DNA of 64,000 nucleotides from Candidatus Komeilibacteria bacterium (lineage in GTDB: Bacteria > Patescibacteriota > Patescibacteriia > UBA1558): contig JBLYPW010000001.1 in assembly GCA_048538275.1 (NCBI GenBank), positions 212,919 through 276,918 of the forward strand, given 5' to 3'. Below the pieces are notes generated by a model. That model made no database searches. It saw nothing but the letters and a program-made list of their open reading frames with translations, and was not told where the DNA came from. The position numbers and the translations under genes were made by a program. Each line of letters starts with the position of its first letter. Within the stretch, counting starts at the first letter, position 1. Shown in pieces: positions 591 to 59,902 of the stretch.

Positions 591-607
591 TAATAAAATA
601 AAATCTT

Positions 608-684: not shown

Positions 685-701
685 TTAATAGCCCAATTTA
701 A

Positions 702-727
702 CGGGGCAAGTTCACATTGTAGAAATC
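702..727 (+). repeat. second tRNA-Val-derived fragment: the 3' end of the 38-nt element (cggggcaag) fused to the tRNA-Val anticodon-arm sequence ttcacattgtagaa
   Basis: Direct sequence comparison with tRNA-Val 639-652 and with the element at 529-537. Confidence 0.5.
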
Positions 728-872
728 AGAGTTTGTTGTTTTCTCATGTTTACCACGTTTGTAGATACATTGTCATCGCTCTTATGATATGCAAAAATTT
801 GTTGGTTTAAAATGAGTTAGTCATTATTGCACCAAAACATATTTATTATTTTATAAACATATATATAATTCA

Positions 873-1526: not shown

Positions 1527-1538
1527 TATCTATATTTT

Positions 1539-2846: not shown

Positions 2847-2952
2847 TTTCTTTGACAAATCGTTTTTTTTGTGTTATTAAATATATAGGTCAAACAGATA
2901 TTTATTTATGTCTGTTACAAATTTATAAACTAAGTAAAGGGGGTGACTCTTC

Positions 2953-3198
2953 GTGTTAGAGGTTAAACGTAAGCCGGGTGAGACTTTTGAGAGTTTATTG
3001 CGGCGTTTTACTAAAAAAACCATTCAAAGCGGAAAAATATTGCAAGTTAAGAAAATCAAATATTTTCAGAAACCCAAAACTGAGAGAGCAAAAAAAGAAG
3101 CCGCTCTCAAGCGTCAAGAATCACGTAAGCAAAGAGATTATTTACGACGCGTCGGTAAACTGGATGAGTGGTTGGATAAACGACGTAAGCGCAGATAA
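2953..3198 (+). CDS. rpsU: 30S ribosomal protein S21 (GTG start)
   Basis: MLEVKRKPGETFESLLRRFTKK... is a typical S21 sequence; rpsU-yqeY adjacency is conserved. Confidence 0.85.
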   Translation: MLEVKRKPGETFESLLRRFTKKTIQSGKILQVKKIKYFQKPKTERAKKEAALKRQESRKQRDYLRRVGKLDEWLDKRRKRR

Positions 3199-3216
3199 AC
3201 ATTAGCTTTTTTTACG

Positions 3217-3660
3217 ATGTCATTAGTAGAACAAATATTGGCCGATCAAAAAGAGGCCATGAAAAACAGAGAACAGATTCGCTTATCTGTATTACGTATG
3301 TTATCAACTAGCGTAAAGAATAAAGCGATAGCAAAGCGTGATGATTTAACAGATGAAGAAGTTCAGGCAGTTATTCGCACTGAAGTGAAAAGAAGGCAAG
3401 AGGCTGCCACTGCTTGGCGGCAAGCCAAGCAGGAGGATAAGGCCGTTGCGGAAGAAAAAGAGGCGGAAATTTTGCAAGCTTATTTACCCGCTCAGTTAAG
3501 CGACGATGAATTGAAGTCATTAATTGAGCAAATAATTCAAGAAAATAACCTTAAAGGCGCTGCTCAGTTTGGTCAGGCAATGGGCAAGGTAATGTCAGTA
3601 GTTGCTGGCCGAGCCGATGGTAAGCGGGTGCAAACTTTTCTACGCGCAGCCTTGCAGTAG
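3217..3660 (+). CDS. yqeY: GatB/YqeY domain protein
   Basis: Full-length similarity to the YqeY family (..QFGQAMGKVM..AGRADGKRV..). Confidence 0.8.
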   Translation: MSLVEQILADQKEAMKNREQIRLSVLRMLSTSVKNKAIAKRDDLTDEEVQAVIRTEVKRRQEAATAWRQAKQEDKAVAEEKEAEILQAYLPAQLSDDELKSLIEQIIQENNLKGAAQFGQAMGKVMSVVAGRADGKRVQTFLRAALQ

Positions 3661-3687
3661 ATTTACCATAAATTTCATCACTCTCCC

Positions 3688-5634
3688 ATGCTAAAATTTT
3701 TTGACATGATGAAAAAAAAGAGAACCGCTGTTTTGTTATCTTTATTGATTGCAGCGGTTCTTTTTTTGTGGGCAATGGGTGTGCAGGCGGTCAATGATTT
3801 GGGCTTGAGTACGGCTCAGCAAATTGGTTTGGGCACGACTCCTTTGCCGGATATTGTAGTCAATGTCGTGCATGTGTTTTTGGGATTGCTGGGCTTGTTA
3901 GCGGTCATTTTTGTATTATATGGCGGCTTTGTTTGGATGACGGCCGGTGGCAACCCTGATAAAATAAGTCAAGCAAAAAAGATATTGATTAATACGGTCA
4001 TCGGCATAGTGATTATATTGTCTTCGTATGCTTTGACAGAATTTTTATTTAGACAATTTGGCTGGGTTACTGGATTACAAAATAATGTGGTGAATCAGTC
4101 ACGCGATAACTCTTATTATTATAGTGGTGGCTTGGCCGGCGGTATTATTCGGGCACATTATCCTCAACGTGGCGATGTTGATGTACCGCGCAATGTTGCT
4201 ATTGCCATTACTTTTAAAGAAGCTATTGATCCGACCACCATTATTGGCGACGACGGTAAGATAATTGTTGACAATGTCAGTATTAGCACCTTAGACGGCG
4301 CGGCTCTAACTGATATTAGCGTTAGCACGGTGGATAATTTAACTTTTATATTGCGACCGGATCAGTGGCTGGGCAATGATCAGGCGGCGGTTTGGTATCA
4401 AGTAGGTTTGCTTTCCGGCATTCAAAAAAGCAATGGCGACCCGGCTTTTGGTCCTTTAGGAAATTATAGTTGGCAATTTGCCACTAGCACTGAAGCAGAT
4501 ACGACACCTCCTCAAGTAACGAGTATTACGCCCAGCGCCGATAGTACTGAGCCGCGTAATGTAGCCGTGCAGATTAACTTTAATGAGCCGGTTGATCCTA
4601 CTAGTGCCAGCGGTGATAGTAATAATTTTTCTAATATTATACTTAGTGATATGTCTGATCAAATAGTATCAGGCACTTATACTATAACCAATCAGTACCG
4701 TACCGTAGAATTTTTAACTAATGATTTGTGTGGTCAAAATTCTTGTGGTGATGATGTCTATTGTTTGCCGGCAGACGAATTATTAAACGCTTTGATCAAA
4801 GCCGCCAGCGTGGGTGTCTTACCTTATGACGGCGTGGTGGACATGGCGGGTAATAGTTTAGATGGCAATGCTAATGGTCAAGCGGAAGGATCTTCTACTG
4901 ATGATTATGGCTGGAATTTTAATACCACCAATGACATTGATATTACGGCACCACAAGTTAAAGAAGTTACTCCAGATACTTCAGCCAATGGTATTAGTAC
5001 TCGTGCTAGAGTACGGGCTGATTTTAATAAGCCTATGCTGTTGAGCTCTATTAATGGTGACTCTATGCAAATAGATCAAGGAGTGAATTATTGGATCAAT
5101 AGTACGATTCAGGATAATACTACCATGAGTTATATTAATCACGATGAATTTATTACGCAGACTACTTATCATCCTCGTATTACCAATGCCTGTCGCGATA
5201 TTTACCAAAATTGTTTTAATCCGCCGCAGGGTCCCAATGAATGGCTGATTTCTCCGACGGGCGATTGGGCCTGGATAGATGGTACTACTAGTGGTGATAT
5301 TGCTAGCGATTCATTGGGTACTAGCTTGACCCTAAGCGCTGGTAATAGTAGTGGCGCTTGGGTATCAGCCGCTATGAGTGCTGATGCGCCAGTAGCTGTG
5401 ATGGCTGTTTTTGCTCAGGATTTGTTGGATAATGGTAGTCAGACGCAGATTTTTGTGCGTAGCGCCAATACCATTGCCAATCTAAATAATGCAACCTGGA
5501 TGGCAGTAGGTTATGACGGACAGCTCAATTTGCCTGCGGCGAATTATTGGCAACTCAAAGCAGAATTAAGTAGCGTGGCAGATGATAGCGTGCCTACAAT
5601 TTTTCAAATTAGCCTTAATATTGATAAATCTTAA
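3688..5634 (+). CDS. surface protein: signal peptide, then a T4SS-pilin-like (VirB2/TrbC-type) two-helix module, then three SbsA-type Ig-like (Big_5-like) domains
   Basis: Signal peptide. Hydrophobic hairpin ..HVFLGLLGLLAVIFVLYGGFVWMTAGGNPDKISQAKKILINTVIGIVIILSSYALTEF. Repeated PRNVA(I/V)xIxFxExIDP Ig-like units. Stop/start overlap (TAATG) with the next gene. Confidence 0.8.
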   Translation: MLKFFDMMKKKRTAVLLSLLIAAVLFLWAMGVQAVNDLGLSTAQQIGLGTTPLPDIVVNVVHVFLGLLGLLAVIFVLYGGFVWMTAGGNPDKISQAKKILINTVIGIVIILSSYALTEFLFRQFGWVTGLQNNVVNQSRDNSYYYSGGLAGGIIRAHYPQRGDVDVPRNVAIAITFKEAIDPTTIIGDDGKIIVDNVSISTLDGAALTDISVSTVDNLTFILRPDQWLGNDQAAVWYQVGLLSGIQKSNGDPAFGPLGNYSWQFATSTEADTTPPQVTSITPSADSTEPRNVAVQINFNEPVDPTSASGDSNNFSNIILSDMSDQIVSGTYTITNQYRTVEFLTNDLCGQNSCGDDVYCLPADELLNALIKAASVGVLPYDGVVDMAGNSLDGNANGQAEGSSTDDYGWNFNTTNDIDITAPQVKEVTPDTSANGISTRARVRADFNKPMLLSSINGDSMQIDQGVNYWINSTIQDNTTMSYINHDEFITQTTYHPRITNACRDIYQNCFNPPQGPNEWLISPTGDWAWIDGTTSGDIASDSLGTSLTLSAGNSSGAWVSAAMSADAPVAVMAVFAQDLLDNGSQTQIFVRSANTIANLNNATWMAVGYDGQLNLPAANYWQLKAELSSVADDSVPTIFQISLNIDKS

Positions 5635-8600
5635 TGCGCAAAGCATCGCATAAAAAAATATTTTTTGTTTTCTTGGCTTTGTTATTAATACCAATTATTA
5701 GTTTTGCGCAAGCTAATTTAGGTTTAGATACGGCTGGCAGCATTGGTTTGGGTACAACTGATTTACCGGTAATTATCGTTAATATTATAAGAATATTTTT
5801 GAGTTTATTGGGCTTGATTGCTGTTGGTGTTATTATTTGGGCTGGTTTGCAGTGGATGACAGCCGGTGGCAACCCAGAGCAGGTCGGACGGGCAAAAAAG
5901 TGGATGATTAATGGTTTGATCGGTCTGGTCATAATCATGGCCTCTTTTGGGATTGCTAGTTTTGTTATTAATAATTTAAAACAAGCTACTGGCTTGAGCG
6001 AAGCTACAGGTGATAATAATAGTTCGGGTGGTGGCGGTTTGCCTGGTGGTGGTTTTGTTTTGAGTAGTTGGCAACCAAGTAACAATAGTAGTGATTGGCC
6101 ACGTAATATTATAGTACGAGCTTATTTTAGCGGTGTCATTGATGCCACCACGCTTGATGAGAATGATATCACTTTTATTGACACCACTAGTAATAATAAT
6201 ATTCCTTTTGTTTTAGAGGCCAATGGTAGTCGTTTAGATATAGCGCCACAAAATAGTTGTGCTGTTGATGGCGTTGATTATTGTTTGCCAGCAGATCATG
6301 CTTATCAGGTAAGTATTGTAAATGGATCAATACGTTCTTTAGCTAACCATACTTTACAATGCGGACAAAATTGTCAGACGGTTTTTTCCGTTGGCAATAG
6401 TATTGATAATACTGCTCCCAATTTTGCGCTAGTGCAACCGGTGGCTGATAGTTTAGTAGCGCTTGATTCATTGGTACCGATTTTAGGTCAGCCAAATGAT
6501 AATAGTAGTGTTATTGCAGCGGTGACTTTTTTGGCTAATGATGATGTTGTTCAACCAGTTGGTAGCGATACGGATGGTGAGCCGTGGACAGTTGACTGGG
6601 TAGTGTCTGGCTATAATGCTGGTGAGATATTAAGTTTAAGTGCTACAGCGGAAGATTTGAGTGGCAATGTGGGTTATGCCCCTGATGTGCGGGTTATTGT
6701 GAGGCCGGAGCATTGTTTCAACGGCTATCAAGACGCTGATGAAACCGGTATTGATGTGGGAGGTAGTTGTGGCGCTGCTTTGGGAGAGTCATGCAATGTT
6801 AATAATAGTTGTGGCAATGGTGATCAATTTTGCGCGGAAGGGAGTTGTAGTGAAGTAACCTGTACTTGTGAAGCCAAGCCCATTGTCATGAGCATTACAC
6901 CCGCTGATGGTGCGGTAGGAAATTTAATTACTATTTATGGTAGTGGTTTTGGTCAAGATTTGGGTGTAGTGACTTTTTTGGGTAGTGCAGCTAGTGGCGA
7001 TGAACAGCTTGGTGATTTAAATGTTTGTTTACAAAGCTGGACCAATAATCAGGTTATAGTAGCAGTGCCAAATAATGCGGTTAGTGGGGGGATTAAATTA
7101 ACTACGGCCAGCGGACGTTTTGATACCACTTTGGATGAATTAGGATGGCAAGGAGAATTTGATGTAAATACCGTGGTGCGACCGGGTTTGTGTTCAGTTG
7201 ATCCAACGATTGGACCGGCCTTGTCACTGGCTAGTGTACAAGGTATTAATTTAGGTTCAAGTGCTGACAATCAAAACTTATTTGTAGGTGGTCAGTCGGC
7301 CAATATTGGTACTTGGCAAAATTCAGCAATTGATTTTATAGTTCCAAATCTACTGCCCAGTAGTCAGCCAGTGAGTATTTCTATACAAAATGACCAGCAA
7401 GAAAATAGTAATCCGGTGTATTTTGTGGTGCAGCCAGACATAGTGACACCACATTTATATAGTATTAATCCGGCTGGAGGGCCAGCGGGTCAGTATATTA
7501 CCTTGACGGGTACAAATTTTGGTACAAATCCGAGCGAAGTAAATGTCAAATTTGTGGCCGCTGATAATACTGCCACGGAAGCAGATATAGATTTTCCGGC
7601 AATGTGTGGAGAGCGACAAATTAGTAATACGGAAATGGTGGTAAAGGTGCCAGCGATCGCAGTGGGCGACTATGCCGTGGACGTTCGCCGTTTGGGTAAG
7701 GTGAGTGAGTCCATTGATTTTTCAGTTGTCAGTGGTCAGCCAGGGGCAGGATTGTGTGCTTTATTGCCAGATAATGGACCCAATGGCATTAGCGTGCAGG
7801 TAGTAGGTGATAATTTTTCTAATGATGGAAGTGTCAATTTTTATAATAATCAAACAGCCCAGACTAGCAATTGGCAAGCTAATAGCGTTGACACCGTTGT
7901 ACCGGCTGATGCAGTGAGTGGGCCGGTGAGCATGATGCTGGCAGGACAGGTTAGTAATAGCATAAATTTCTCGGTGGGCACTTGTAGTCCCGGACCGGGC
8001 GAGGAATTGTGTGCTGATGGCAGCTGTCGTCCGGTAGGAGAATGTTTAAATATACCGGCAGATGATGACTATACTTGGTCTTTTACCACGGGCGAGGCGT
8101 GGCCACCCTTCGTTGTTAGTGATTATTGGCCGGCTTGTAATAGTGCTTGTACAAATGCTGATGTAGCAGCGGTTTTTTCCAATCCATTGGATACAAATAC
8201 AATTATGAACAATGTTGAGATTTGGGATTGTGGTGAGGATGACATGTGTCTATCATCTGAGCAAATTGATTTGACCAATGGCAATGTTTGGGGCGGTAAT
8301 TATGATGCGAGTAACAATGTATTGCATTTTTTACCTTTGGGCATTAGCGCTAATCACAATTATCGCGTAGTTATGACCATGGGTAATGATGGTATAAAAA
8401 ATGCCGTAGGTGAAAATTTAACTAATCCTAATTTTGATAAAAATGGTGACGGAATAGATGATAGCTTTGCTTGGATTTTTAGTACTGGCGAGCAAGCATG
8501 TGTTCCAGCGCGCGCTGAGGTTTTGCCATCTCCTATTAAGTTTACTCGTTTAGAACAAAGTGAAACTGTCTACCCTTATCCTTATTCGGCGGCTGACAGT

Positions 8601-11600
8601 TGTAGCGCAACAGGACAACCTTTGTTGGCCAGTGATTATAGTTGGGCATGGAGTCTAAGCTCAGCGCTGCCAATAACTTTAGCAGTGGGAAGTAATTATG
8701 CCATTGTTCGCCCTCGGGCTGATGGCCAATCAAGGGTATTGGCAAGGATAAATGATTATGGTGTTATTGGTAGAAGCTTTGTTACCGTGGATATGGACAT
8801 TCCTGTTATTACCGCTATTAGTCCGGATAATGGTACGACAAATACTAATGTAAAAACTTTGGTTACCATTAGCGGTTATAATTTTGGCGAACATCAGGGT
8901 AGTAGTTATGTGGAAGTGGGCGGTACACGGGCGCAGTTGGCTGATTGTGGTATACCTTGGAGTGATACGCAAATTATTATAGAATTACCAGCCACTACGC
9001 AGAGTGGTGATCATATTAAAGTCATAAAAACTACTGGTGAGGATATTTCAGACCAGGCCTTTACGGTGAATAATATTATTAGACCGGCATTGTGTGGTAT
9101 TTCTCCCAATTATGGCACGGACGGTGATAGCGTGACTTTATCAGGCTATAATTTTGGCGATACCCAAGTTGATAGTATGGTAATGTTTGATCAGCTGGGA
9201 GTGGATACAATCAATAGTTGGTCTAATCAGTCCATTCGTACTATCGTACCGCCAGGTGCTAGTACGGGTCCGGTTTATGTTAATGTTCTTGGTAATAATT
9301 CTAATGCCATTAATTTTTCTTTGGAGCCATTTATAACCAAGCTTGATCCGAACAATGGCCCGGTCAATAGTTATGTTACTATTTATGGTGGAAATTTTGG
9401 TGATACTAGAGGTAATGGTCGGGTGATGATTGGTGGTCAATTAGCGAACTTAGCCCCTTGTGTTGATAATTGGAACAATACCACTATTATCGTTCAGGTA
9501 CCGGAAGGTCTTGATCTGGGCAAGTGGCCGGTACAAATATTTACAGCTAATAATATTCCCACCAATACGGTAGATTTTACAGTCAATGAAAATCCTTTGA
9601 ATCCACTATTGTGCCAGCTGGATCCAAATTGGGCGAGTAATAATGAAAGTATAAAATTGAAAGGTGATAATTTTGGTGACGCTCCCTATTTTGCCGGAGC
9701 AGAAAATGTAGACATGGCAGTGGGCGCTGATTATAGTAATATTATGGACCGTTCATGTATTTATAATAATGGTACTTATATTGGTTCTTGCAGTAATCTA
9801 TGGGTGGACTATCAGTTTAATTTTAATGCGGATGGTTATTATAATGCTTGGGCGGAGACCAGTAATAATGGTATAGATCTTACCGATCAAGGAATCTATC
9901 ATAATGTAGTTGTTTATCTTGACGGTCAATATATAGGTCAGTTCAGCAATGTAGCATCAAACCCAGATCACAATTTAGGTAGTGTGGGTTTGGGTTGGGT
10001 GAGCGCCGGTAATCATACGGTGAGATATTATTGGAATAATGATTGGTGTGGTGGTTGTGGTGATGGCATAGGCGATTCTAATATTCTATTTCATAAGGTT
10101 GGTATAGATGAGGGCGCTCCGATGAGCTATGCTTTATTTACTGATAATTATGCTGCTGAGACAAATAGCTGGCAAAACACAGAAATGAGCGCCAATATCA
10201 ATGAGTCGGTATTATCAGGTCCAGTTAGTTTGGTTAAAGAGGTGGTGACTGGTCGACAGTGCGCTGGTTTTCATATTGGCGGTTGGTGTCCGGGTGGAGT
10301 TTATGATGATATTACTACTACGACACAAAGTAATAGCTTGTCCTTTATCAAGGGCTGTGTGATTGGTACTACTTCTTCGCGAGTAGAAGGTTATATTCCC
10401 ACGGTGGCGGAAAATAGTGAGGCGGTGGGAACTTTAGCTACAGATGGTAGATTTTTATATGGTAAGAGTTGGGGTGGCTATGATAGGCACGATCGGTTGA
10501 TAACAAGAATTGGCAGTGGTTATCAGTATACTGTTCTTGGCAAAGTTTATAGTCATTTAGCTTATGTTGCGGACAGCTTAACTATGACTTATTATCCGGA
10601 TGGATATATATATAATGGTTATTCTACCAATGGGCATAATTTGCAACGGATCAATGCGGGAACTGGTTCCACTGATATGAGTTTAAATATTCCTGATGGT
10701 TTGCTGAATCGTAATACGGGGGAGGTTTATTCAGGAGTAAGAAGTGATTATTTAATTACTTCTGATGGTACATATATTTATAATTTAGCTTTTAGTACTC
10801 ATGCCTGCCCCCAAAATTATGGCAACCGTTGTTATGATGGATTCAAAGTTAGGGTTTTTGATCCAATGGATGATATGAGCTTGGTAAGAGAATGGACATC
10901 TGGTACAGATTCATTTTATACCGACGGTATTATCGCGGATGGTAAATATGTTTATGCCTTTGAATGGAGTGGCCAGCACAGAGTACGAAAAATGGATGCC
11001 ATCACCGGAGAGTTTGTGGCAGAATGGATATCCGAACAAGGCGGTCCAACTGGTGAGGGTAATGATATTATTTCCGGTCAATATGATTGGGTCAATGATA
11101 CAGTATGGATGGGTGATTTAGTTGATCATAGTCGCAATCCTGGCCCGGCTTATATTTATCAATATAATAGTTGTCATTTTGAAGACGGTGTGCTATTTCC
11201 AAGGTGCGGTGATGGTATATTGCAACAGAATGGCGAACCGGGTGATAGTTATGATTATACTTCTGCTCACAGTGGCAATATCAATTCTTATTATGAGCAA
11301 TGTGACGATGGTAATCTTATTAACGGGGATGGTTGTAGCTCGTGGTGTGCTCTTGAATCAGTGCCAGTCAGTAGTAATTTTATTATTACTGATCATGAGC
11401 CTGCAGTGGACGCTCCTGCCAATACCACCATCCGTTTGTTTTTCAGTGATAATGTTGCGACCGGTTCATTGGCCGATCGTGATATTACGATTACAGCCGG
11501 CGAAAATAATTTAAGTTGGAATGCATCAGTGAATAATAATGTCATTACTCTATTACCAACCCAAGTTTGTGGCGCCCCACATACAGACTTACGATGCTGG

Positions 11601-14600
11601 CCTACTAATCAGCGATTACAAGTCGTGGTAGCTGAGGGTAGTATTAAAAATATTCATAATCAGGGACTTAGTTGTAATAATGGTAAATGCGAATTTCATA
11701 TACAGACAACTGATCAAGTGGATGTGATAGCGCCACAAATCAGCTTGTTGACACCTACACAGGGTCAACAAGTACCGGTGGGCAGTTCAATAGCAGTGCA
11801 GGCTCAGGCTACCGATGATACTGACGTGGCTTATGTTGATTTTGCTATTGATGGTCAGTCGGTTGGTATTGTTAACCAAACGGGTATTTTTTCTGGTGAT
11901 CAATCTTATACTGTTTTGAATTATTTCCAGACTTTGCGGAGTGTTGATATTAACAATGACGGTTATGAAGATTTGCTAGCTTTTTCCAATAATGAGAGAG
12001 GATTTTCCGTGTTATTGAATAATGGTTGGGGAGGTTATATAGCTAAAGATTATAATGTGGGGGCTTATTATTATTCTTATGATTCAGGTTTTGGCATATG
12101 GGATGTAAATAATGATGGTTATTTAGACGTATTGCTTGGTAATAATAATTATGCCGGAAAGTTTTATATATTTTTGAATAATGGTGACGGTACTTTTGCC
12201 TCTCGTCAGACCTATGATTCGGCCGGACATTATCCGCGCGCCATAGCGACTGGCGATCTCAACGGCGATGGTTATAATGACATTGCAGTAGCGAATGATA
12301 GGGGGGATGGTAATAATATAGAATTAGTGATATTTGCCGGCGACGCTCAAGGTCATTGGTACTTGGTCAAGCAATTGAATATTGCTGATGATTATTCTGT
12401 TACCGGTTTAGCTATCAGCGATTATGATAATGACGGTAAAGATGATATCGCTGTATTGCAACGTTATCATAGTAGTAATAATTTACATATTTATTGGGGG
12501 CAAGAAAATTTAGCGAGCGATTGGCAAAAACTAGCTATGAATTCAGGTGGTTATTCTTATCAATTAGTTAGTAGTGATATAGATAATAACGGCAATGAAG
12601 ATTTGTTAATCTTGATGTACCATAGTGGGGATGATTATAGCTATTATATACAAGTGTTATATAATCAAGACAATAGAATATTTAGTCAGAGTAGTTTGCC
12701 TCAGAGTGACGGACATCACTACTATGTTACCAACTCTTTATTGATAAAAGACACAGATAATGATGATTATTCTGAGATATTTGCTAGAGAGGGTAATGTA
12801 ATAGTGCGTTGGGATAATAATGGCGGCGCAATTAGCGCACCAGCGGTATTGTCTAATGTACCTAGCTCAATATATACATTAACTGATACAAATAATGATA
12901 ATAGATTTGATATTATAAGCCGCAATAGTAACACGGATGCCATAGTGCTACTAAATAATGGTGACGGTACTTATGGTAGTAATAATATAGTTAGTTTTCC
13001 TTATGCTATGAAAAGTGTAGTGGCTAATGATTTGGATGGTGATGGCCTACCGGAGTTGATTATGCCGTATGTCAATAGTATTAGTAGGGGAGTAACAATT
13101 TATAGAACAGGCGCGGCTGGTTATCAAGAACAATCTAATTTTGATATCTTTTATGATCTGACGGCAAGAGCTACTGGTCGTTTATATGGCGCCTTACCTG
13201 ATAATAGTGGAAGTTATTATGGCTGGTGGGGCGGAGATTGGCATGCTGGCACGGGCGTTGGTAGCGGTCCGGTTTATGCCCAAGTGAGTGGTCAAAGTAC
13301 AGATTCAACCATAGTCAGTGGTAATTTAACACCCTCTCCTTATGATGGCGTCTATGCTGATTTTGATGTTGACTTGGGAGGTGGATTTAGCGTGCGTAGC
13401 ACTGGTTGGGTTTATGGTTATCCTAGTTTGTATCCTTATAGCGCAGCAGTTGGTAATTTTAATGGAGATGCTTATCAAGATATTATATTGCGTGATCGGA
13501 GTGGCTCTGGTAGCCATTATGATGCTCGTGTTTTAGCTGGTGGCTCAAATGGATGGCAAGAACAAGCGAATTATAATAACACTACTGGCGCATCTGGCTA
13601 TGATTGGCGTACGGCTACCAGAGGCATTTATCAACAGACCCAGGTAGTTGATATGAACAGTGATAATTCTGATGATTTTCTATTATTCAATGCAACAGGA
13701 GCGTTTAGTAGTTTTATTAATGATGGCACGGGTAAATTTACCGCAATCAATTATGAAGATTCTGATACTAATGATGCTTATCGTTTTGTGATGGGTGATT
13801 TAACTGGGGATAATATGCCTGATTTAGCTTATATTCAATACGAGTGGCAATCCAATAGTACAAACTTGTATATTGTAGAAAATAAAAATGGAAATTTAGA
13901 CTTTGCCCAACGCAGAGTTTTGACGTCACCTGATTATATAAATGGTTTGAGCATTGCCGATTTTAATAATGACGGCACAAATGATGTTATGGTGGTTTCG
14001 CAGTCAGCCGGTACGCTGTTTTATGACCGTAGTAGCGGCCAATGGCGGTCATATACTGCCGATATCAATGCTCCTAAATTGGCCAAAGCAGGCTTAGTGG
14101 ATAATGATGGTCTATTGGATATAGTAGTAGTAACAGATGGCGGCGGCGTACAAGTTTATTATAATCAAGGTGATTTTACCTTCACTAGCGGTGAATCTTT
14201 TACTTTGTTTAGTTATTACTATGGACCGGCTATCAATGATGACGCTTTGGCCATTGACGATTTTAATAATGATGGCCAGCAGGATATAGTTTTGAGCAGG
14301 TCATATGGCAGCGACTTGGCTTTTGTTTATCAAAAAGCCAACCCTGATTTATATAGTTATGCTTGGGATACTACCGGACTGATAGTAGGATCGCAACACA
14401 CAGTGCAGGCTACGGCTTATGATCTTGATAGCCATAGTACTAGTAGTCAATTAGTAACCGTAACTATTGGCTTGCAGGGAGATCATTGTACTGACGGTCT
14501 TATCAATTTTGACGAAAATGGTTTAGATTGCGGTGGCGCCGATTGTAGCGCCTGCCAGAATAATATTAGTGAGATTATTGTTAGTCCGCAAGAAGCTAAT

Positions 14601-17096
14601 GTAAATGTTGGTGAACAGATATTATTTAATGCCCAAGTCATAGATAATGATGGCAATCTTTTGTCAGATGCGATGGTTGATTGGACCAGCAATAGTTCTG
14701 ACAGTATTGGTATTAGTAGCGCGCTAGATGGTGGAATTTTAGTTAGTGGACAAATAGAAGGAGAGGCTATTATTACGGCCAGTTTAGGTGATATTAGCGA
14801 CGATGCCTTGGTTCACGTTGTTGTCCCTGTTAGTCCATGTGGTGATGGCATTGTTGATAGTAATATTGGTGAGCAATGCGATTTTGCGGCTGATGGTACG
14901 GTAATTATACCGGATAATTTAGCTTGTACCAGTTTTCCTGATTATGCTGCCGGTAGTTTGGGTTGTACGAGTCAATGCGAGTTGGACTTCAATCAGTGCG
15001 TGCCTGGCATACCCACATCAGGAGCTTGTGTAAATACAGAAATATCCGCTACGTTTGACAGTCCTATGCTTGCCTCTTCATTTACGCTTGATAAAGTACA
15101 TCTTTATAAACTATTAAGTAATGATGATTGGCAAGAAATACCTATCACTTTTAGTTTGGAAGACCGGCCAATTAGTGGCGAGCCAGAACAAACAATATTA
15201 TATATTCATCCCCTTGATGATCTAGATCCTTTTACCGTTTATAGAGCGGTAGTGTCTGGGGGTAGCGGTGGAGTTATGGATATGGGAGGAAGTATTTTAC
15301 CAAATGATTATGCGTGGCAATTTGATACTGGTGAAACTTTTTGCTTTATTGATCGCGTTGCTATTGAGCCAGATAGTTATGAATTTAATTCAGTGGATGA
15401 ACAAATTAACTTTATAGTGCATGCTTATGACAACGAAAATAATGTCATCAACGGTAATTATAATTGGCAGCTAGAAGGCAATAGCGAGTTAGTGAATATT
15501 GGCAATAATAATGGGCAAATTATTACTGTACAGCCAACTGGTATCGGCAATGGCGCTTTGAGTTTACGTGCCTTGGTTGATAGTGGAGCTCAGGGAAATG
15601 GTGAGGCAGTGGCGCCAATTGATATTTTTATGTGCGGTGCTCCTTGGCAATATAGTAATGACAGCTATAATTTTGCTGTTAAATATTGTCGTGGTGATGG
15701 GCCTAATATGATCTATAATAGTGGTTTTGAGCAAGATAATAACAATGATATTTATCCGGATGGTTGGGAAATGCCTATTGGCAATGCCCTGGTTAGTGAT
15801 TATACTGCTAGATTGGATGAGGACGGTAGCGGCAAGGTCTTTACTATCATTCAAAACAATACTGCTACGATTAGTCATGATCGCGTTTTGGTGCGTCAGT
15901 ATGTGCCGGTCAAGCCACAAACTACTTATAGCATCAATTTTAAAATTAAAGCCGAAAATATAAATAATAGACCGGTGGAAATATATGAGCTGGCGGATAG
16001 AAACGGTGCCAGGCTGGGTGATCAGCCACTTTCTTCTGGTAGCATTGGTAGCTATGATTGGGAGACTAATAGCTTAATAATTCTTACTAATGCCGATACC
16101 AATTATTTGGAAGTGGGCTTGGTATTGTATATGAGTCGTGATAATAATTTATCACAGATTTGGTTTGATGATATGCAATTGGAGCTTGGTAATCAAGCCA
16201 GTAGCTATCAGGCTAGTAATTTATTGCCGGATTTGGTAGTCAGTGAAGTAGGAAGTGGTTTTGATGATCCAAATTTACTAACGACTATATTATTGAGTCA
16301 ACAAGTTTATGGCAGTGATGACGCTATTGGCATGCGGGTCTATAGTAATTTTGATCATCTTGACCCTCTGAGCTGGTATCAAAACAATATAGTGACCCAA
16401 GGACAGCCCCAGTCCATTATAGTCGGAGGTTATAGCGCTTTGCAGGAAGGGCGCAGCACTTATGTTAATGCCGCAAATATAGCTGGCGCTGATGTATATA
16501 CCAATATTTATCTTTTATCTTATACTCAGGGAGCTGGTAATGATACGCAAAATATGTTCACGCAAATTTATAATAATTGGTCTTTTAATACTAATTTAAG
16601 TTCCGTGGCTTTGCGGCAAAGATTAGTGAACGATACTTTACGCTGGGAAGGTTTAAATATATTGGATAACTCACTGCGGGAGTATTATGATAAATATGGC
16701 TTTTATCCTAAATTATTGTCTGGCACTTATCAAGTAGGTAATAGTGTATCGGTTTGGGATTCTTGGCAATCAACATTAGCCACTGCTTTGGGTATAGTCG
16801 CACCGATTGACCCCATCAATAGTCATAGTATTTGTCCTGCCGGGTACGACTCTGTGACTTGTTGGAATCCTGAGCAGCAAGATTATGTTTGCCCGTTAGG
16901 TTCTCATATTTATCAGTATCATGCTTTATCTTCTGGACAACATTTTGAATTGAATAGCAATTTTGAGTATGGCGGGGTTATCTGGCGGGGGAGTTTTCAG
17001 TTGCCAGTTGACATGAGCGAGGAGTGCGACAATATCATTTGGAGTGATCAGGATATTGACAGTAATGAGGCACAAGATGGCATACGAGGCATATAA
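5634..17096 (+). CDS. giant (3820 aa) surface adhesin-like protein whose N-terminal module is a paralog of the 3688-5634 product
   Basis: The architecture, in order: signal peptide; pilin-like module (..WMTAGGNPEQVGRAKKWMINGLIGLVIIM..); Gly linker; Ig-like domains; EGF-like Cys clusters; about 8 IPT/TIG-like units (P..x.I.P..G..G..(I/V)T(I/L)xGxNFG); a propeller-like region; Cys-rich CGDGI..EQCDDGNLINGDGCSSWC repeats; about 15 FG-GAP/VCBS-like DxNxDGxxD repeats; two Big_2-like domains; a CBM-like C-terminal domain. It is a single uninterrupted ORF. Confidence 0.85.
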   Translation: MRKASHKKIFFVFLALLLIPIISFAQANLGLDTAGSIGLGTTDLPVIIVNIIRIFLSLLGLIAVGVIIWAGLQWMTAGGNPEQVGRAKKWMINGLIGLVIIMASFGIASFVINNLKQATGLSEATGDNNSSGGGGLPGGGFVLSSWQPSNNSSDWPRNIIVRAYFSGVIDATTLDENDITFIDTTSNNNIPFVLEANGSRLDIAPQNSCAVDGVDYCLPADHAYQVSIVNGSIRSLANHTLQCGQNCQTVFSVGNSIDNTAPNFALVQPVADSLVALDSLVPILGQPNDNSSVIAAVTFLANDDVVQPVGSDTDGEPWTVDWVVSGYNAGEILSLSATAEDLSGNVGYAPDVRVIVRPEHCFNGYQDADETGIDVGGSCGAALGESCNVNNSCGNGDQFCAEGSCSEVTCTCEAKPIVMSITPADGAVGNLITIYGSGFGQDLGVVTFLGSAASGDEQLGDLNVCLQSWTNNQVIVAVPNNAVSGGIKLTTASGRFDTTLDELGWQGEFDVNTVVRPGLCSVDPTIGPALSLASVQGINLGSSADNQNLFVGGQSANIGTWQNSAIDFIVPNLLPSSQPVSISIQNDQQENSNPVYFVVQPDIVTPHLYSINPAGGPAGQYITLTGTNFGTNPSEVNVKFVAADNTATEADIDFPAMCGERQISNTEMVVKVPAIAVGDYAVDVRRLGKVSESIDFSVVSGQPGAGLCALLPDNGPNGISVQVVGDNFSNDGSVNFYNNQTAQTSNWQANSVDTVVPADAVSGPVSMMLAGQVSNSINFSVGTCSPGPGEELCADGSCRPVGECLNIPADDDYTWSFTTGEAWPPFVVSDYWPACNSACTNADVAAVFSNPLDTNTIMNNVEIWDCGEDDMCLSSEQIDLTNGNVWGGNYDASNNVLHFLPLGISANHNYRVVMTMGNDGIKNAVGENLTNPNFDKNGDGIDDSFAWIFSTGEQACVPARAEVLPSPIKFTRLEQSETVYPYPYSAADSCSATGQPLLASDYSWAWSLSSALPITLAVGSNYAIVRPRADGQSRVLARINDYGVIGRSFVTVDMDIPVITAISPDNGTTNTNVKTLVTISGYNFGEHQGSSYVEVGGTRAQLADCGIPWSDTQIIIELPATTQSGDHIKVIKTTGEDISDQAFTVNNIIRPALCGISPNYGTDGDSVTLSGYNFGDTQVDSMVMFDQLGVDTINSWSNQSIRTIVPPGASTGPVYVNVLGNNSNAINFSLEPFITKLDPNNGPVNSYVTIYGGNFGDTRGNGRVMIGGQLANLAPCVDNWNNTTIIVQVPEGLDLGKWPVQIFTANNIPTNTVDFTVNENPLNPLLCQLDPNWASNNESIKLKGDNFGDAPYFAGAENVDMAVGADYSNIMDRSCIYNNGTYIGSCSNLWVDYQFNFNADGYYNAWAETSNNGIDLTDQGIYHNVVVYLDGQYIGQFSNVASNPDHNLGSVGLGWVSAGNHTVRYYWNNDWCGGCGDGIGDSNILFHKVGIDEGAPMSYALFTDNYAAETNSWQNTEMSANINESVLSGPVSLVKEVVTGRQCAGFHIGGWCPGGVYDDITTTTQSNSLSFIKGCVIGTTSSRVEGYIPTVAENSEAVGTLATDGRFLYGKSWGGYDRHDRLITRIGSGYQYTVLGKVYSHLAYVADSLTMTYYPDGYIYNGYSTNGHNLQRINAGTGSTDMSLNIPDGLLNRNTGEVYSGVRSDYLITSDGTYIYNLAFSTHACPQNYGNRCYDGFKVRVFDPMDDMSLVREWTSGTDSFYTDGIIADGKYVYAFEWSGQHRVRKMDAITGEFVAEWISEQGGPTGEGNDIISGQYDWVNDTVWMGDLVDHSRNPGPAYIYQYNSCHFEDGVLFPRCGDGILQQNGEPGDSYDYTSAHSGNINSYYEQCDDGNLINGDGCSSWCALESVPVSSNFIITDHEPAVDAPANTTIRLFFSDNVATGSLADRDITITAGENNLSWNASVNNNVITLLPTQVCGAPHTDLRCWPTNQRLQVVVAEGSIKNIHNQGLSCNNGKCEFHIQTTDQVDVIAPQISLLTPTQGQQVPVGSSIAVQAQATDDTDVAYVDFAIDGQSVGIVNQTGIFSGDQSYTVLNYFQTLRSVDINNDGYEDLLAFSNNERGFSVLLNNGWGGYIAKDYNVGAYYYSYDSGFGIWDVNNDGYLDVLLGNNNYAGKFYIFLNNGDGTFASRQTYDSAGHYPRAIATGDLNGDGYNDIAVANDRGDGNNIELVIFAGDAQGHWYLVKQLNIADDYSVTGLAISDYDNDGKDDIAVLQRYHSSNNLHIYWGQENLASDWQKLAMNSGGYSYQLVSSDIDNNGNEDLLILMYHSGDDYSYYIQVLYNQDNRIFSQSSLPQSDGHHYYVTNSLLIKDTDNDDYSEIFAREGNVIVRWDNNGGAISAPAVLSNVPSSIYTLTDTNNDNRFDIISRNSNTDAIVLLNNGDGTYGSNNIVSFPYAMKSVVANDLDGDGLPELIMPYVNSISRGVTIYRTGAAGYQEQSNFDIFYDLTARATGRLYGALPDNSGSYYGWWGGDWHAGTGVGSGPVYAQVSGQSTDSTIVSGNLTPSPYDGVYADFDVDLGGGFSVRSTGWVYGYPSLYPYSAAVGNFNGDAYQDIILRDRSGSGSHYDARVLAGGSNGWQEQANYNNTTGASGYDWRTATRGIYQQTQVVDMNSDNSDDFLLFNATGAFSSFINDGTGKFTAINYEDSDTNDAYRFVMGDLTGDNMPDLAYIQYEWQSNSTNLYIVENKNGNLDFAQRRVLTSPDYINGLSIADFNNDGTNDVMVVSQSAGTLFYDRSSGQWRSYTADINAPKLAKAGLVDNDGLLDIVVVTDGGGVQVYYNQGDFTFTSGESFTLFSYYYGPAINDDALAIDDFNNDGQQDIVLSRSYGSDLAFVYQKANPDLYSYAWDTTGLIVGSQHTVQATAYDLDSHSTSSQLVTVTIGLQGDHCTDGLINFDENGLDCGGADCSACQNNISEIIVSPQEANVNVGEQILFNAQVIDNDGNLLSDAMVDWTSNSSDSIGISSALDGGILVSGQIEGEAIITASLGDISDDALVHVVVPVSPCGDGIVDSNIGEQCDFAADGTVIIPDNLACTSFPDYAAGSLGCTSQCELDFNQCVPGIPTSGACVNTEISATFDSPMLASSFTLDKVHLYKLLSNDDWQEIPITFSLEDRPISGEPEQTILYIHPLDDLDPFTVYRAVVSGGSGGVMDMGGSILPNDYAWQFDTGETFCFIDRVAIEPDSYEFNSVDEQINFIVHAYDNENNVINGNYNWQLEGNSELVNIGNNNGQIITVQPTGIGNGALSLRALVDSGAQGNGEAVAPIDIFMCGAPWQYSNDSYNFAVKYCRGDGPNMIYNSGFEQDNNNDIYPDGWEMPIGNALVSDYTARLDEDGSGKVFTIIQNNTATISHDRVLVRQYVPVKPQTTYSINFKIKAENINNRPVEIYELADRNGARLGDQPLSSGSIGSYDWETNSLIILTNADTNYLEVGLVLYMSRDNNLSQIWFDDMQLELGNQASSYQASNLLPDLVVSEVGSGFDDPNLLTTILLSQQVYGSDDAIGMRVYSNFDHLDPLSWYQNNIVTQGQPQSIIVGGYSALQEGRSTYVNAANIAGADVYTNIYLLSYTQGAGNDTQNMFTQIYNNWSFNTNLSSVALRQRLVNDTLRWEGLNILDNSLREYYDKYGFYPKLLSGTYQVGNSVSVWDSWQSTLATALGIVAPIDPINSHSICPAGYDSVTCWNPEQQDYVCPLGSHIYQYHALSSGQHFELNSNFEYGGVIWRGSFQLPVDMSEECDNIIWSDQDIDSNEAQDGIRGI

Positions 17097-17168
17097 TTTA
17101 TAGGTAATAGTGATTTTATTAATACTCAAATTTAGGTTATAATATAATTATCTTTTTAATAAACCTCT

Positions 17169-19700
17169 ATGAATATTTTTTCTAATAAATTGTTTTTAAC
17201 ATCATTGGGCTTGCTTGTATTTATGCCTTTGATTGCTAATGCCGCTATTAGTAATAGTTGTCAGGAAGAATTATTACTTACCAATAATACTGACATCTCT
17301 TTATCTAATATTGAATATTCCGGGATGACACCGGCAAGTGGTTTTTATTTTTTGGACAAAGTCGGTGATTGGACAAAGCTTCATTTATTTTCTGTGACCA
17401 CCGATGCTAAGTTAAATACATTATTAGATCAGGCGGAGGAGAAAATAGGTGAGCTGGAGTTATTACAAAAGCAAAATAATTTAAAATCTCGCTATTTGGA
17501 TATATTAACCACCGCATATACTGACATCATGAGCCAAGTAGATAGTAAATTGGCAGAATTGCAAAATAAAAATGTTGATATGACGGCGGTGATGACACGC
17601 ATCACCCAGCTAAATATGCGTAATAAGGCAATTTTGAGCCGGGTTTTATCCGCTAGTACCAGTGAACAACAAAGTAAATTAAATTTGGCTTATCAGCAGA
17701 CAGCTGACAGTTTTTGTACATCAATAAATACTTGGCAAGAGAGAACCAGCCAATGCCATGATGACATTGTTGTCCAGCAAACTTTAAATTCTTCTTTTAA
17801 TAATATTTCTAACACTATCAGCCAAGCCGAGCAGGCGGTGAAAAATTTACAACCCACTATTGATATTATAAAAGATAGGACGCAAATATTAGATAAATTT
17901 ATTCAGTCAGTTGACGCCGGTTTTCTTGATTTGCAGCTTTTGTTGCAAGAAAAAAGTGATGATCGGGAGGCGCGCTTGCAAAAATTTATGCAATATGTTT
18001 CTGATTGGCTAAATAGTGAGCAGTATCAGCTATTGCATAAAGACATAGAACGCATGAATAATTTTGCTTTTTTAGTGGGTGGGTCGCAACAACAACAGAC
18101 CTTAATGCAAAATTGGCGAGAGCATGACATTAGTTTAACGAGGTTATTGTCAAGGCTAGATAGTTTGCGCAATATATCTATCAATGATGAGGCGGCTGTT
18201 ATCGGTAATAGCTTGTACGCTTTACAATTAAAAGCTTATGATGACGAATTATTAGCCTTAGCTGCTTATATTGCTGAGGATAAAATAGCAGTAGAAGAGC
18301 TAAATGCGGAGGTGCAATTTTGTGCTAAACAATTTTCTAGCATGAACGACGCTCGGGCGTATTTAGAAAAAGATAATCCCAGCAGAGCTTTATCTATTTT
18401 TGTAGAAATTAATAAATCTTTATTAAATAATAATAATAAAATATTAGTTGGTTGTGGCATGAGTGATATAGTGGGTAATGCGCAAAATATTTTACAAAAT
18501 AGTCAGATCTTAGCTGGCGCTGATAAATGTGGCAAGGATATGTATAATATGTATAAAGATGAATTAATTTCTTTGTTTAAGTATGATTTAGAACAAGCGA
18601 ATTTAGTCAATAGTTATGCCAGTAAGGTACAAATTTTACAGCAGCAATCTTTAGAGCAATTAGTCAAGCAAAAATCTATGATTGAAGAGGCTAAGAAAGC
18701 TTTAGCTCAGCCTAAGTTAGAGAACGACGAGGCTTTGTGGGCTTTTTTGGCAGAGCATCTCAAAGATATTAATAATAATTTATTAGATATCAGTAAGAGG
18801 TATCATAATTTATTTGATCAGTTGACTCAATTGTCAAATGATTGGCAATTGTGGCTGAAAAATTTCTATTCTATCAGAGACGTTTTGCCTGCCTTGCGAG
18901 AACAAATAGATCATAAACAAGTAGCTGTTGTACAACAAACATTGGATTTGAATATTTATCCTATTGTAGAAAAGCAGCTTAGTGGGGCAAGAATAACGCC
19001 TCTTACTGGGCAATTATCCTTGAATACAGCTCATCTGGCTTGGGCCAATAAGCACTGGCAGACAGAAGAAAGCAAGGCTTATGAGGATATTGTTTCAGCG
19101 ATTAAGCAGGCTGCTATAGCAATAGGTAAAAATACTTGCGCGCAAGGCATGGCCATCTACAATAGTTCTGTGCCGGGCATTTGTAGTAGTTTAGCCCAAT
19201 TAGATTGGATTAATAGTTGTCAGGTAATAAATAATATAGAGAAGCAAGTTACTCTGGCTTGTACTCCTGATGCTCAACTTTTATGTGGTAATGGTGTGGT
19301 GGATGATGGTGAGCAGTGTGATGATGGCAATGCTATTTCCGGAGATGGCTGTAATAAAGTATGCCAAAAGGAGCAGATTTTATATTGTGGTGATGGGATA
19401 ATCAGTCACCCCAATAGTTCTGGCATTGATGAACAATGTGAAAATCAGCCGGCTAATAAATTATCCGGAGATGGCTGTAGCACTAATTGTCAGAATGAAG
19501 CAGCACCAGTTTGTGGTGATGGTATTTTACAACGAATGATAGATCAAGCAACGACTAGTACTTTTGCCAGCGCTACCTCTGCATATTATGAGCAGTGTGA
19601 TGATGGTAATTTATTACCCGGTGATGGGTGTAACAATTTGTGCCAAATAGAAGCGGGTAGTGCGCAACGTAGTATTAATATATTACAAACTAAACCATAA
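17169..19700 (+). CDS. secreted coiled-coil protein with three C-terminal Cys-rich 'CGDG...EQCDDGN..GDGC..C' repeats
   Basis: Signal peptide, a long Q/L-rich helical region, and C-terminal repeats paralogous to those in the giant protein. Confidence 0.7.
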   Translation: MNIFSNKLFLTSLGLLVFMPLIANAAISNSCQEELLLTNNTDISLSNIEYSGMTPASGFYFLDKVGDWTKLHLFSVTTDAKLNTLLDQAEEKIGELELLQKQNNLKSRYLDILTTAYTDIMSQVDSKLAELQNKNVDMTAVMTRITQLNMRNKAILSRVLSASTSEQQSKLNLAYQQTADSFCTSINTWQERTSQCHDDIVVQQTLNSSFNNISNTISQAEQAVKNLQPTIDIIKDRTQILDKFIQSVDAGFLDLQLLLQEKSDDREARLQKFMQYVSDWLNSEQYQLLHKDIERMNNFAFLVGGSQQQQTLMQNWREHDISLTRLLSRLDSLRNISINDEAAVIGNSLYALQLKAYDDELLALAAYIAEDKIAVEELNAEVQFCAKQFSSMNDARAYLEKDNPSRALSIFVEINKSLLNNNNKILVGCGMSDIVGNAQNILQNSQILAGADKCGKDMYNMYKDELISLFKYDLEQANLVNSYASKVQILQQQSLEQLVKQKSMIEEAKKALAQPKLENDEALWAFLAEHLKDINNNLLDISKRYHNLFDQLTQLSNDWQLWLKNFYSIRDVLPALREQIDHKQVAVVQQTLDLNIYPIVEKQLSGARITPLTGQLSLNTAHLAWANKHWQTEESKAYEDIVSAIKQAAIAIGKNTCAQGMAIYNSSVPGICSSLAQLDWINSCQVINNIEKQVTLACTPDAQLLCGNGVVDDGEQCDDGNAISGDGCNKVCQKEQILYCGDGIISHPNSSGIDEQCENQPANKLSGDGCSTNCQNEAAPVCGDGILQRMIDQATTSTFASATSAYYEQCDDGNLLPGDGCNNLCQIEAGSAQRSINILQTKP

Positions 19701-19722
19701 TAAATATATAAATCATAAATTT

Positions 19723-20517
19723 ATGTTTGAAGATTTTGATGATAAAATAAAAGATAATAAACCGCCTACTTCACCGGAGATTCCTAGGCAACCAGATAGT
19801 ATCCCCGTGGCAAATAATCAATCAGCGGAAAAAGAGCCGGAAGATATTTTTGCCAATGTTGAAAAGGATCAAATGTCTAAACCAACGCAGCCACCCAGGC
19901 CAGCGCAAGCGCCAGGCCAGCCAAAAGATATTGGGCCAGCTAAGCCTTTACAAGCCATGCCAGCGGCGGATGGCGCCAGCCAGACTGGTCATAAACGTTG
20001 GTTATGGGCAGTCATAGGATTGGTGGTGATTGTGGCGATCGGTATTTGGTGGTGGAGCGCTTATAGCACGCCTGATAATTATAGTGATTTGGTCAATAAC
20101 CCCCTTGATAACCAGATGAATAACCAGATGAATAACCAGATTAATAATGCCCCTACAGATTTGGTGAATAATCAGCCGGTTGATATACCGACTGATAACC
20201 AGTTGGATAATAATTCTGGAGAGATTATAAATCAGCCAATAGATAATGTTGATCAGCCCAGCGCTAATCCAGATATCAATATTGATACAGATGGTGATGG
20301 TTTGACAGATAAGCAAGAGGCCACCATTGGTACCGATCCTAGTCAAGCAGATAGTGATGCGGATGGTTTGTTTGATAAGGAAGAGGTGGTAACTTATAAT
20401 ACCGATCCTTTGAACCCGGATACAGATGGTGATGGTTATGCGGATGGCTTGGAAGTGCAAAGTGGCTATAATCCAGCCGGTGAGGGTAAGTTATTAAATA
20501 TTCCTACCGATCAATAA
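19723..20517 (+). CDS. single-pass membrane protein with a Pro-rich N-terminus, N/Q tandem repeats and thrombospondin-type-3-like Ca-binding repeats
   Basis: TM segment WLWAVIGLVVIVAIGIWWW; NNQMNNQMNNQINN; DTDGDGLTDKQE..TDPSQADSDADGLFDKEE..TDPLNPDTDGDGYADGLE. Start chosen at the internal ATG at 19723; the ORF-track start at 19660 overlaps the previous gene. Confidence 0.65.
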   Translation: MFEDFDDKIKDNKPPTSPEIPRQPDSIPVANNQSAEKEPEDIFANVEKDQMSKPTQPPRPAQAPGQPKDIGPAKPLQAMPAADGASQTGHKRWLWAVIGLVVIVAIGIWWWSAYSTPDNYSDLVNNPLDNQMNNQMNNQINNAPTDLVNNQPVDIPTDNQLDNNSGEIINQPIDNVDQPSANPDINIDTDGDGLTDKQEATIGTDPSQADSDADGLFDKEEVVTYNTDPLNPDTDGDGYADGLEVQSGYNPAGEGKLLNIPTDQ

Positions 20518-20521
20518 TTTT

Positions 20522-59898: not shown

Positions 59899-59902
59899 AG
59901 GA

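Follow-up and report, generated by a model that had tools for sequence, protein, structure and literature searches.

The 64,000-nucleotide stretch of the Candidatus Komeilibacteria contig JBLYPW010000001.1 analyzed here (hereafter, the window) carries one giant open reading frame (ORF) of 11.5 kb, which is a real gene and encodes a 3820-residue cell-surface protein of an ultrasmall bacterium of the candidate phyla radiation (CPR), or Patescibacteria. The protein belongs to a family of giants that is widespread, with at least 201 clusters, but undescribed, and that most likely mediates attachment. That a CPR genome encodes a giant resembling an adhesin fits a known theme; what stands out is that a VirB2-like head is joined to so large an ectodomain within a conserved module of two genes, and that two domains, a terminal one named domX and a five-bladed β-propeller, have no Pfam family. 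We find it reasonably probable that the protein is a membrane-anchored, calcium-dependent adhesion fiber with exchangeable binding modules.

At the base composition of the window, a stop is expected with a probability of 0.070 per codon and 3820 stop-free codons would occur by chance with a probability of about 1e-121. The GC content of the gene equals that of its neighbors (0.405 versus 0.402), which argues that the gene is native. An earlier note on this DNA, made from the letters alone, had described an uninterrupted 11.46 kb ORF of 3820 aa covering 18% of the window; its coordinates are exact and the share is 17.9%. The same note had raised the prospect of an assembly chimera, in which several genes would have been fused across internal repeats. 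Such an origin is suggested by the repeated domain types within the protein and by a related contig broken into many short genes (L001, JGI sample 3300045909, 1–17678), where the giant and its partner are split into more than 12 gene calls; its probability is nevertheless negligible. Tandem Repeats Finder reported nothing inside the ORF, and the longest direct repeats measure 25–59 nt with 63–87% identity: as DNA, the repeated domains differ too much from one another to mislead an assembler. The breaks in L001 are frame changes within otherwise collinear homology and could reflect sequencing or assembly error or a decaying copy.

The chimera is effectively refuted by intact syntenic orthologs, with the same module order, from independent assemblies. 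P0135, an intact giant of 3242 aa, is found both on a 212-kb NCBI contig and in the Logan assembly of another run, and is collinear with the window protein over aa 1–1350 (45% identity) and aa 3069–3816 (38–39%). Its locus (L004) comprises genes for an S26 peptidase, HisRS, an 82-aa protein at the S21 position, YqeY, a head-bearing protein, the giant, a DUF5667/DUF4215 protein, a TSP3 protein, a 541-aa protein and YbeY, in the gene order of the window, and the start of the giant overlaps the preceding stop, as in the window. P0134 (4605 aa) is collinear with the window giant along its entire length and P0133 (3866 aa, partial, NCBI MCR4280292.1, Candidatus Komeilibacteria) until its contig ends; the best-scoring homolog with an organism name comes from Candidatus Komeilibacteria. 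Nine related loci were fetched, each consisting of an ORF of 590–1000 aa followed by a giant, which is uninterrupted and complete in seven (2685–3944 aa) and runs off the contig in two. The gene is thus conserved and hence under selection, as had been argued from its size. Antisense and out-of-frame ORFs of 80–156 aa inside the gene overlap the conserved coding frame, and no RNA genes or tRNAs were found within it. There is no identical record of the exact 3820-aa protein, and a search of the whole protein against the PDB gave no relative at 1e-3. The giant ORF and its modules are the following.

5634..17096, + strand: giant ORF, ATG start, 3820 codons, single terminal stop
5634..5711, + strand: predicted signal peptide, aa 1–26, ending in SFAQA (hydropathy segment aa 4–33 and column conservation; putative cleavage site)
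5712..5993, + strand: T4SS_pilin (VirB2-like) head, aa 27–120 (PF18895, hydropathy, family conservation)
6057..6623, + strand: Big_5 (aa 142–240) and Big_7 (aa 262–330), immunoglobulin (Ig)-like (Pfam)
6708..6875, + strand: Cys-rich knot, aa 359–414, 8 Cys (sequence reading)
6876..7979, + strand: four IPT/TIG domains, aa 415–782 (Pfam, 4 stretches, E 6e-26)
8112..8795, + strand: Big_5-like domain (aa 827–932, 20.1 bits, below cut-off; Pfam) and Ig-like module (aa 956–1054; reading)
8796..9668, + strand: TIG 5–7 and first strands of TIG 8, aa 1055–1345 (Pfam, 3 stretches, E 1e-28; motif scan)
9669..10133, + strand: putative jelly-roll-like insert, aa 1346–1500, motif YYWNNDWCGGC (homologs P0006 and P0016; fold and insertion predicted)
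10425..11180, + strand: five-bladed β-propeller, aa 1598–1849 (Pfam-less domain family)
11199..11360, + strand: Myxococcus-type Cys-rich acidic repeat (DUF4215/TIGR02232), aa 1856–1909 (NCBIfam, Pfam)
11361..11879, + strand: Big_5-like domain (aa ~1924–1977, 22.8 bits, below cut-off) and Big_7 (aa 2034–2082) (Pfam)
11919..14333, + strand: FG-GAP array, aa 2096–2900, 14 calcium-type motifs (Pfam, motif scan)
14571..14807, + strand: Ig-like Big_1/Big_2-type domain, aa 2980–3058 (sub-threshold Pfam)
14826..15638, + strand: DUF4215-like Cys cluster (aa 3065–3125; reading), Big_5 (aa 3121–3232) and Ig-like module (aa 3236–3335) (Pfam)
15705..16193, + strand: β-sandwich resembling a lectin or carbohydrate-binding module (CBM), aa 3358–3520 (sub-threshold)
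16296..17033, + strand: domX, terminal domain of ~250 aa with two subdomains, aa 3555–3800 (Pfam-less)

The N-terminal head matches PF18895 (T4SS_pilin; T4SS, type IV secretion system) with 42.4 bits in the whole protein (aa 43–111, E 7e-11) and with 48.7 bits when taken alone, for a cut-off of 26.6. By hydropathy, the only hydrophobic segments of the protein are found at aa 4–33, 37–78 and 89–117. The first covers the signal peptide, whose 'AQ' is conserved in the family (column conservation A27/32, Q28/35), while the other two are the helices of the head, joined by the basic loop WMTAGGNPEQVGRAKK; the short basic loop between the hydrophobic helices, GGNPEQVGRAKK, is as in PF18895 pilins. 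The mean column identity of the head reaches 47% across 37 diverse members, far above that of the ectodomain, with invariant Gly71 and Gly97 and conserved motifs WMTAGG, AKK, and ATG. This VirB2-like hairpin probably holds the giant in the membrane.

Alternatively, the head could be a true pilin module, with the T4SS of the Patescibacteria extracting the giant and its partner from the membrane so that they become minor or tip subunits in a VirB2-like filament of small pilins and display the 3700-aa ectodomain far from the cell. The T4SS_pilin match shared by 37 of 37 sampled family heads, the weak TrbC/VirB2 match of 22 of them (best 2.9e-5) and a weak match of the head to NF045849, a pilin-like conjugal transfer protein of the Mycoplasma integrative and conjugative element, all point in this direction, as do the constant pairing of two head-bearing genes and the strong conservation of the head, as would be expected of a module that has to fit a machine or a polymer. 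In addition, VirB2-like arrays occur widely among CPR bacteria, and one Saccharibacterium requires them (PMC12102498, PMC10633639). However, no T4SS gene (VirB4, VirB6, VirB3) was found among the scanned ORFs of the window or among the gene calls of loci L001, L004, L006, and L007; no solved pilin in the PDB matched the head by single-sequence or profile search; the match of the window protein to PF04956 (TrbC/VirB2), which covers profile positions 9–97 of 98, stays below threshold (20.1 bits versus a cut-off of 27.9); and the very designation of PF18895 as a pilin family is predicted. Characterized VirB2-type pilins have ~100–130 aa. With 3820 aa and a head restricted to aa 1–120, the giant is not a small stand-alone pilin and is, to our knowledge, ~30 times longer than any characterized pilin of the VirB2 type. 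We therefore judge a pilus-borne adhesin, the main rival of the membrane-anchored fiber, to be unlikely.

Characterized VirB2/TrbC pilins undergo C-terminal processing. In 34 of the 37 members, a near-invariant A-T-(G) stands right after the second helix and is followed by a Gly-rich linker; by analogy, the protein may be cut here, which would free the ectodomain. A conserved S26 peptidase gene is located four genes upstream and may or may not be relevant to cleavage of the head.

Past the head, this one very large gene encodes extracellular domains of the binding and spacer kinds, arranged as a mosaic. The SbsA-type Ig units of the earlier note correspond to Big_5, which scores 71 bits over the whole protein: the copies at aa 142–240 and 3121–3232 pass the cut-off on their own, and those at aa 827–932 and 1924–1977 fall below it when the segments are scanned alone. 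Big_7 likewise matches above its Pfam threshold. The Ig-like module at aa 956–1054 recurs in 48 of the 94 large relatives. The TIG domains total 147 bits over 6–7 stretches and carry the xGxNF motif in seven copies, while an eighth domain appears, on our reading of the sequence, to be split by a 155-aa insert, in agreement with the eight or so repeats counted before. The Cys clusters, five in total, had been taken for EGF-like; no EGF family is matched in the giant at E ≤ 1. One of them matches TIGR02232 (aa 1881–1909, 42.6 bits versus a cut-off of 20.8) and also DUF4215, and a second, at aa 3065–3125, has no profile match of its own and resembles DUF4215 by reading. The Cys-rich knot at aa 359–414 has no Pfam match, and a small Cys knot lies between the fourth TIG and the following Big_5-like domain. 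Since the 66 Cys residues of the protein are even in number, all of them could be disulfide-paired, which is consistent with an extracellular protein.

The FG-GAP array is matched by FG-GAP_3 (137 bits) and FG-GAP (79 bits), both above the Pfam thresholds, and contains 14 DxNxDGxxD-type motifs at ~52-aa spacing (aa 2105–2876), as the earlier description of a calcium-type array had it. A ~100-aa insert separates repeats 8 and 9, and the array probably folds into two seven-bladed calcium-binding propellers. The closest solved sequence is that of the calcium-binding blades of integrin αIIb, with a weak match to the FG-GAP loops (E 0.0065). The giant thus shares with the integrin α β-propeller the FG-GAP matches and the calcium-type loops, but it is bacterial, has no β-subunit partner and carries two probable tandem propellers within a far larger protein. 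The relation to integrins is at the level of the domain family only and is no evidence of a eukaryotic origin: to call the domains 'eukaryote-like' was misleading, as the nearest relatives all come from Patescibacteria metagenomes and the composition is native. Each of the families TIG, FG-GAP, Big_5, and Big_7 is well represented in bacteria.

Two further domains reported from the letters are less clear. The segment aa 2980–3058 falls below the cut-off for both Big_2 (15.5 bits versus 22.8, E 0.017) and Big_1 (E 0.0015) and is matched as weakly by DUF7382; it is an Ig-like domain that these matches assign to no family with certainty. The lectin/CBM-like region (aa 3358–3520) is conserved in P0133, P0134, and P0135, with a sub-threshold match to CBM_4_9 (aa 3358–3450, 14.4 bits versus 25.9), and is not C-terminal, domX lying behind it. 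The T4SS_pilin head, the five-bladed propeller, the jelly-roll-like insert, and domX, as well as the partner gene, had been absent from that first list; the most informative of these is the head, which would account for the way the protein is kept at the surface. The insert has no Pfam match, and its AF2 model, built with 2 homologs only, is of low confidence.

The nearest neighbors of the five-bladed propeller fold include extracellular, ligand-binding olfactomedin and a phage receptor-binding protein. Were this propeller, or domX, catalytic on envelope polymers or proteins of a host, the giant would be a surface-tethered enzyme or predatory factor, an idea for which giant genes of other ultrasmall bacteria, linked to cell-wall degradation in a preprint (bioRxiv 10.1101/2023.11.21.568195), offer a precedent. 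We rate it as very unlikely: identity to enzymes is 6–13%, no enzyme family matches the giant in the Pfam and NCBIfam scans, the non-enzymatic propellers just named match equally well, and few family members possess the propeller. The propeller family (P0007–P0017) also occurs in Latescibacterota proteins and elsewhere; the N-termini of the proteins P0008 and P0010 resemble archaeal-type pilin signals, and in some proteins the propeller is present twice or has its order circularly permuted (P0011, P0015, P0017).

The family was delineated with aa 1–420 as HMMER query against the complete set of 1.84 billion cluster representatives, of which 201 matched at E ≤ 1e-30. Among the best 150 of these, nearly all of which align at their own N-terminus, the median length is 3048 aa, the maximum is 6060 aa, and 94 have at least 2500 aa. 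The window protein displays the features that define the family: the VirB2-like head, Big_5, Big_7, and TIG array at the N-terminus, domX further on, and a head gene of 590–1000 aa upstream. A census of modules over the 94 large relatives found the head in all of them, domX in 93 and TIG in 90; by comparison, the CBM-like sandwich is present in three, and the jelly-roll insert, the five-bladed propeller, the FG-GAP array, and the Big_2-like domain in two each, these rare modules being almost confined to the three closest relatives. P0135 and L001 have Laminin_G_3 modules in their variable middle and no FG-GAP match. The module census and these swaps therefore reveal a constant chassis with an exchangeable middle. 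Most members have domX near aa 2000–2350 with ~900 aa behind it, and it is terminal in the window protein, P0134, and P0135. Close relatives of the giant were found neither in a genome-contig scan nor in two metagenome scans: the former yielded only one distant metagenome-assembled genome of Patescibacteria (alignment of aa 795–1560 with P0006), the first metagenome scan nothing, and the second, besides short head-only matches at 48–55%, relatives at 27–30% identity only.

No Pfam match for domX was obtained in the window protein or in 44 homologs scanned singly. A profile search found it in at least 296 clusters, with named sources that are nearly all Patescibacteria (Falkowbacteria, Parcubacteria, Gracilibacteria) and a few records labeled Elusimicrobiales, Planctomycetes or plain 'bacterium'. 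In each of the best 120 matches, which are proteins of 256–809 aa, domX is N-terminal and directly follows the signal peptide, and the C-terminal parts of these small proteins vary (He_PIG, cadherin-like, DUF4215, MopE-like, LamG). In locus L002 (4977–12349), genes for three secreted proteins of 1000, 279, and 1162 aa stand in a row; all begin with a signal peptide and domX and diverge thereafter, into He_PIG/cadherin-like domains, nothing, and Gly_rich_2/GP38-like domains, respectively.

These observations bear on another possibility, namely that the giant and its partner form or scaffold an S-layer or outer coat instead of a host-specific adhesin. The locus sits amid housekeeping genes in conserved order and is near-universal in the clade, Big_5 is the SbsA-type S-layer Ig domain, the downstream genes encode further calcium-binding or Cys-rich surface proteins, and domX, common to hundreds of small secreted proteins, could be a docking or wall-binding module. 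On the other side, neither SLH nor any other known wall-binding domain is present in the giant, building an abundant lattice from monomers of 400 kDa would come at a high cost, and the middle third is swapped between close relatives, which resembles specificity determinants more than lattice proteins. A structural envelope role is, in our view, rather improbable.

The giant is preceded by the partner gene that forms the other half of the module.

3688..5634, + strand: partner gene, 648 aa, VirB2-like head and three Big_5; its stop overlaps the start of the giant (TAATG)

The two proteins share 32% identity over 285 aa, which span the head and the first Big_5, and a head-bearing gene of 590–1000 aa lies upstream of the giant in nine of nine fetched loci. 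In every case the giant has this smaller relative as its companion and far exceeds the other proteins of its locus in size; in the flanks examined, the pair is set among housekeeping genes of conserved order.

From the domain content and the gene pair we infer the following course for the adhesion fiber favored here. The giant would be exported by the Sec pathway and its signal peptide cleaved, the two-helix VirB2/T4SS_pilin-like hairpin remaining in the cytoplasmic membrane with its short basic loop (RAKK) on the cytoplasmic side and the remaining ~3700 residues outside the cell. The ectodomain would be a long stalk in which Cys knots stiffen a series of TIG and Ig-like (Big_5, Big_7) domains; the stalk would bear the five-bladed propeller, the jelly-roll-like insert, two FG-GAP propellers, and the lectin-like sandwich as putative binding modules, with domX at its end. 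The most likely outcome is calcium-dependent attachment of the cell, with a host cell or else glycans or proteins of a surface as the target, and with a specificity that would come from the exchangeable middle modules on an invariant chassis of head, stalk base, and domX. The giant probably acts together with the translationally coupled upstream paralog that shares its head. Adhesion stands as the most plausible role, and host-cell adhesion is deduced, here as in the earlier note, from domain content.

Several points weigh against this fiber. The adhesive role is read from domain families with members in enzymes, S-layers, and scaffolds as well; the conserved housekeeping neighborhood and the near-universal presence in the clade would suit a structural envelope component equally well; and the conservation of the head is too high for a passive anchor and suggests a specific contact, either with a T4SS or in oligomerization, for which the fiber model has no account. 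A bolder variant, which we regard as improbable, takes up the last point: the head would not be passive, the giant and the medium-sized head protein would form a short fiber through a T4SS or by self-assembly of their heads, and domX would dock the small domX proteins into a modular 'adhesome'. If so, small domX proteins with variable cadherin, He_PIG, LamG, or Cys-rich ends would be hung on the giant, in a logic analogous to that of the cohesin-dockerin cellulosome, and would permit combinatorial change of CPR host specificity.

In agreement with the adhesion fiber favored here, giant membrane proteins with integrin-type domains have been proposed as host-attachment factors in other CPR bacteria (PMC8080830, PMC4736985): the ten longest proteins of Vampirococcus lugosii have 1392–4163 aa (PMC8080830), and Peribacteria encode large Cys-rich FG-GAP proteins (PMC4736985). 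The window giant is like them in being very large, Cys-rich, and predicted to be extracellular or membrane-bound, in combining integrin/FG-GAP-type and other adhesion domains, and in belonging to a small genome; it differs from them, in a comparison made by description and not by homology, in its VirB2-like head, its two-gene module, and domX. With PF18895/VirB2-type pilins it shares an N-terminal region of 120 aa with a signal peptide, two hydrophobic helices, and a basic loop, but it has 3820 aa, of which ~3700 extend beyond the second helix, and lacks T4SS genes in its vicinity, whereas CPR VirB2-type pilins often adjoin virB4 (PMC12102498). Long Ig-like stalks that present binding modules, with likely calcium binding and the largest gene of the region, are also found in SiiE, in LapA-type RTX adhesins, and in LPXTG adhesins, among them the 7651-aa LPXTG-anchored Ig-repeat adhesin of Mobiluncus mulieris (PMC6272769, PMC10619420). 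Unlike these, the giant has no RTX or type I secretion system (T1SS) signal and no LPXTG match in Pfam or NCBIfam, its neighbors are not T1SS genes, and it carries an N-terminal pilin-like hairpin; its C-terminus reads ...SNEAQDGIRGI, with neither an LPXTG motif nor a hydrophobic segment. A limited literature search found no description of a VirB2-like head on a giant adhesin, of the two-gene module or of the Pfam-less domains.

A large part of bacterial diversity falls within the Patescibacteria, whose cultivated members live attached to other microbes, yet the contact-making molecules are known for a few Saccharibacteria only. Epibiotic growth in Saccharibacteria requires adhesins and T4SS pilins (PMC10633639), and the need for adhesins agrees with the fiber favored here. 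The family offers testable candidates for host attachment in Parcubacteria-type lineages without a cultured member, and raises the question of the role of a VirB2-like module where a monoderm-type T4SS should need no pilin.

Downstream of the giant are three genes for further predicted surface proteins.

17169..22117, + strand: three co-located surface-protein genes (Pfam, NCBIfam, hydropathy)

The first encodes a protein of 843 aa with DUF5667 and three Myxococcus-type Cys-rich repeats, and the second a 285-aa membrane protein with TSP3 calcium repeats. As called, this second gene starts at a GTG that lies within the preceding gene, for an overlap of 41 nt. The third (20522–22117) encodes a 531-aa protein with one transmembrane helix, two pilin/pseudopilin-like modules characterized by the motif YY...YP...LPQDP...Y.Y, and a TSP3-like stretch; the Pfam matches to T2SSG and TSP3 are sub-threshold only and no class III pilin signal was found in this protein. 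The same genes follow the giant in L004, where the 541-aa protein occupies the position of the 531-aa one, and TSP3 genes follow the giant in L001, L006, and L007. A 12-nt tandem repeat at 20108–20147 encodes NNQM repeats in the 285-aa TSP3 protein.

The window as a whole is a housekeeping stretch with nearly every gene on the + strand; its scanned ORFs include signal peptidase, HisRS, YqeY, YbeY, FtsA, FtsZ, NrdR, and RF-1, and further ComEC, Ndk, DnaB, and RecR. An 81-aa ORF at 2953..3198 occupies the position of the S21 gene of related loci, where the gene is annotated Ribosomal_S21 in L001 and L006. After 59 kb of almost purely + coding, the strand switches at 59299–61984 to − (RecR, DnaB, tRNA-Lys), and the GC skew is 0.04 at 60–62 kb versus 0.12–0.27 elsewhere in the window.

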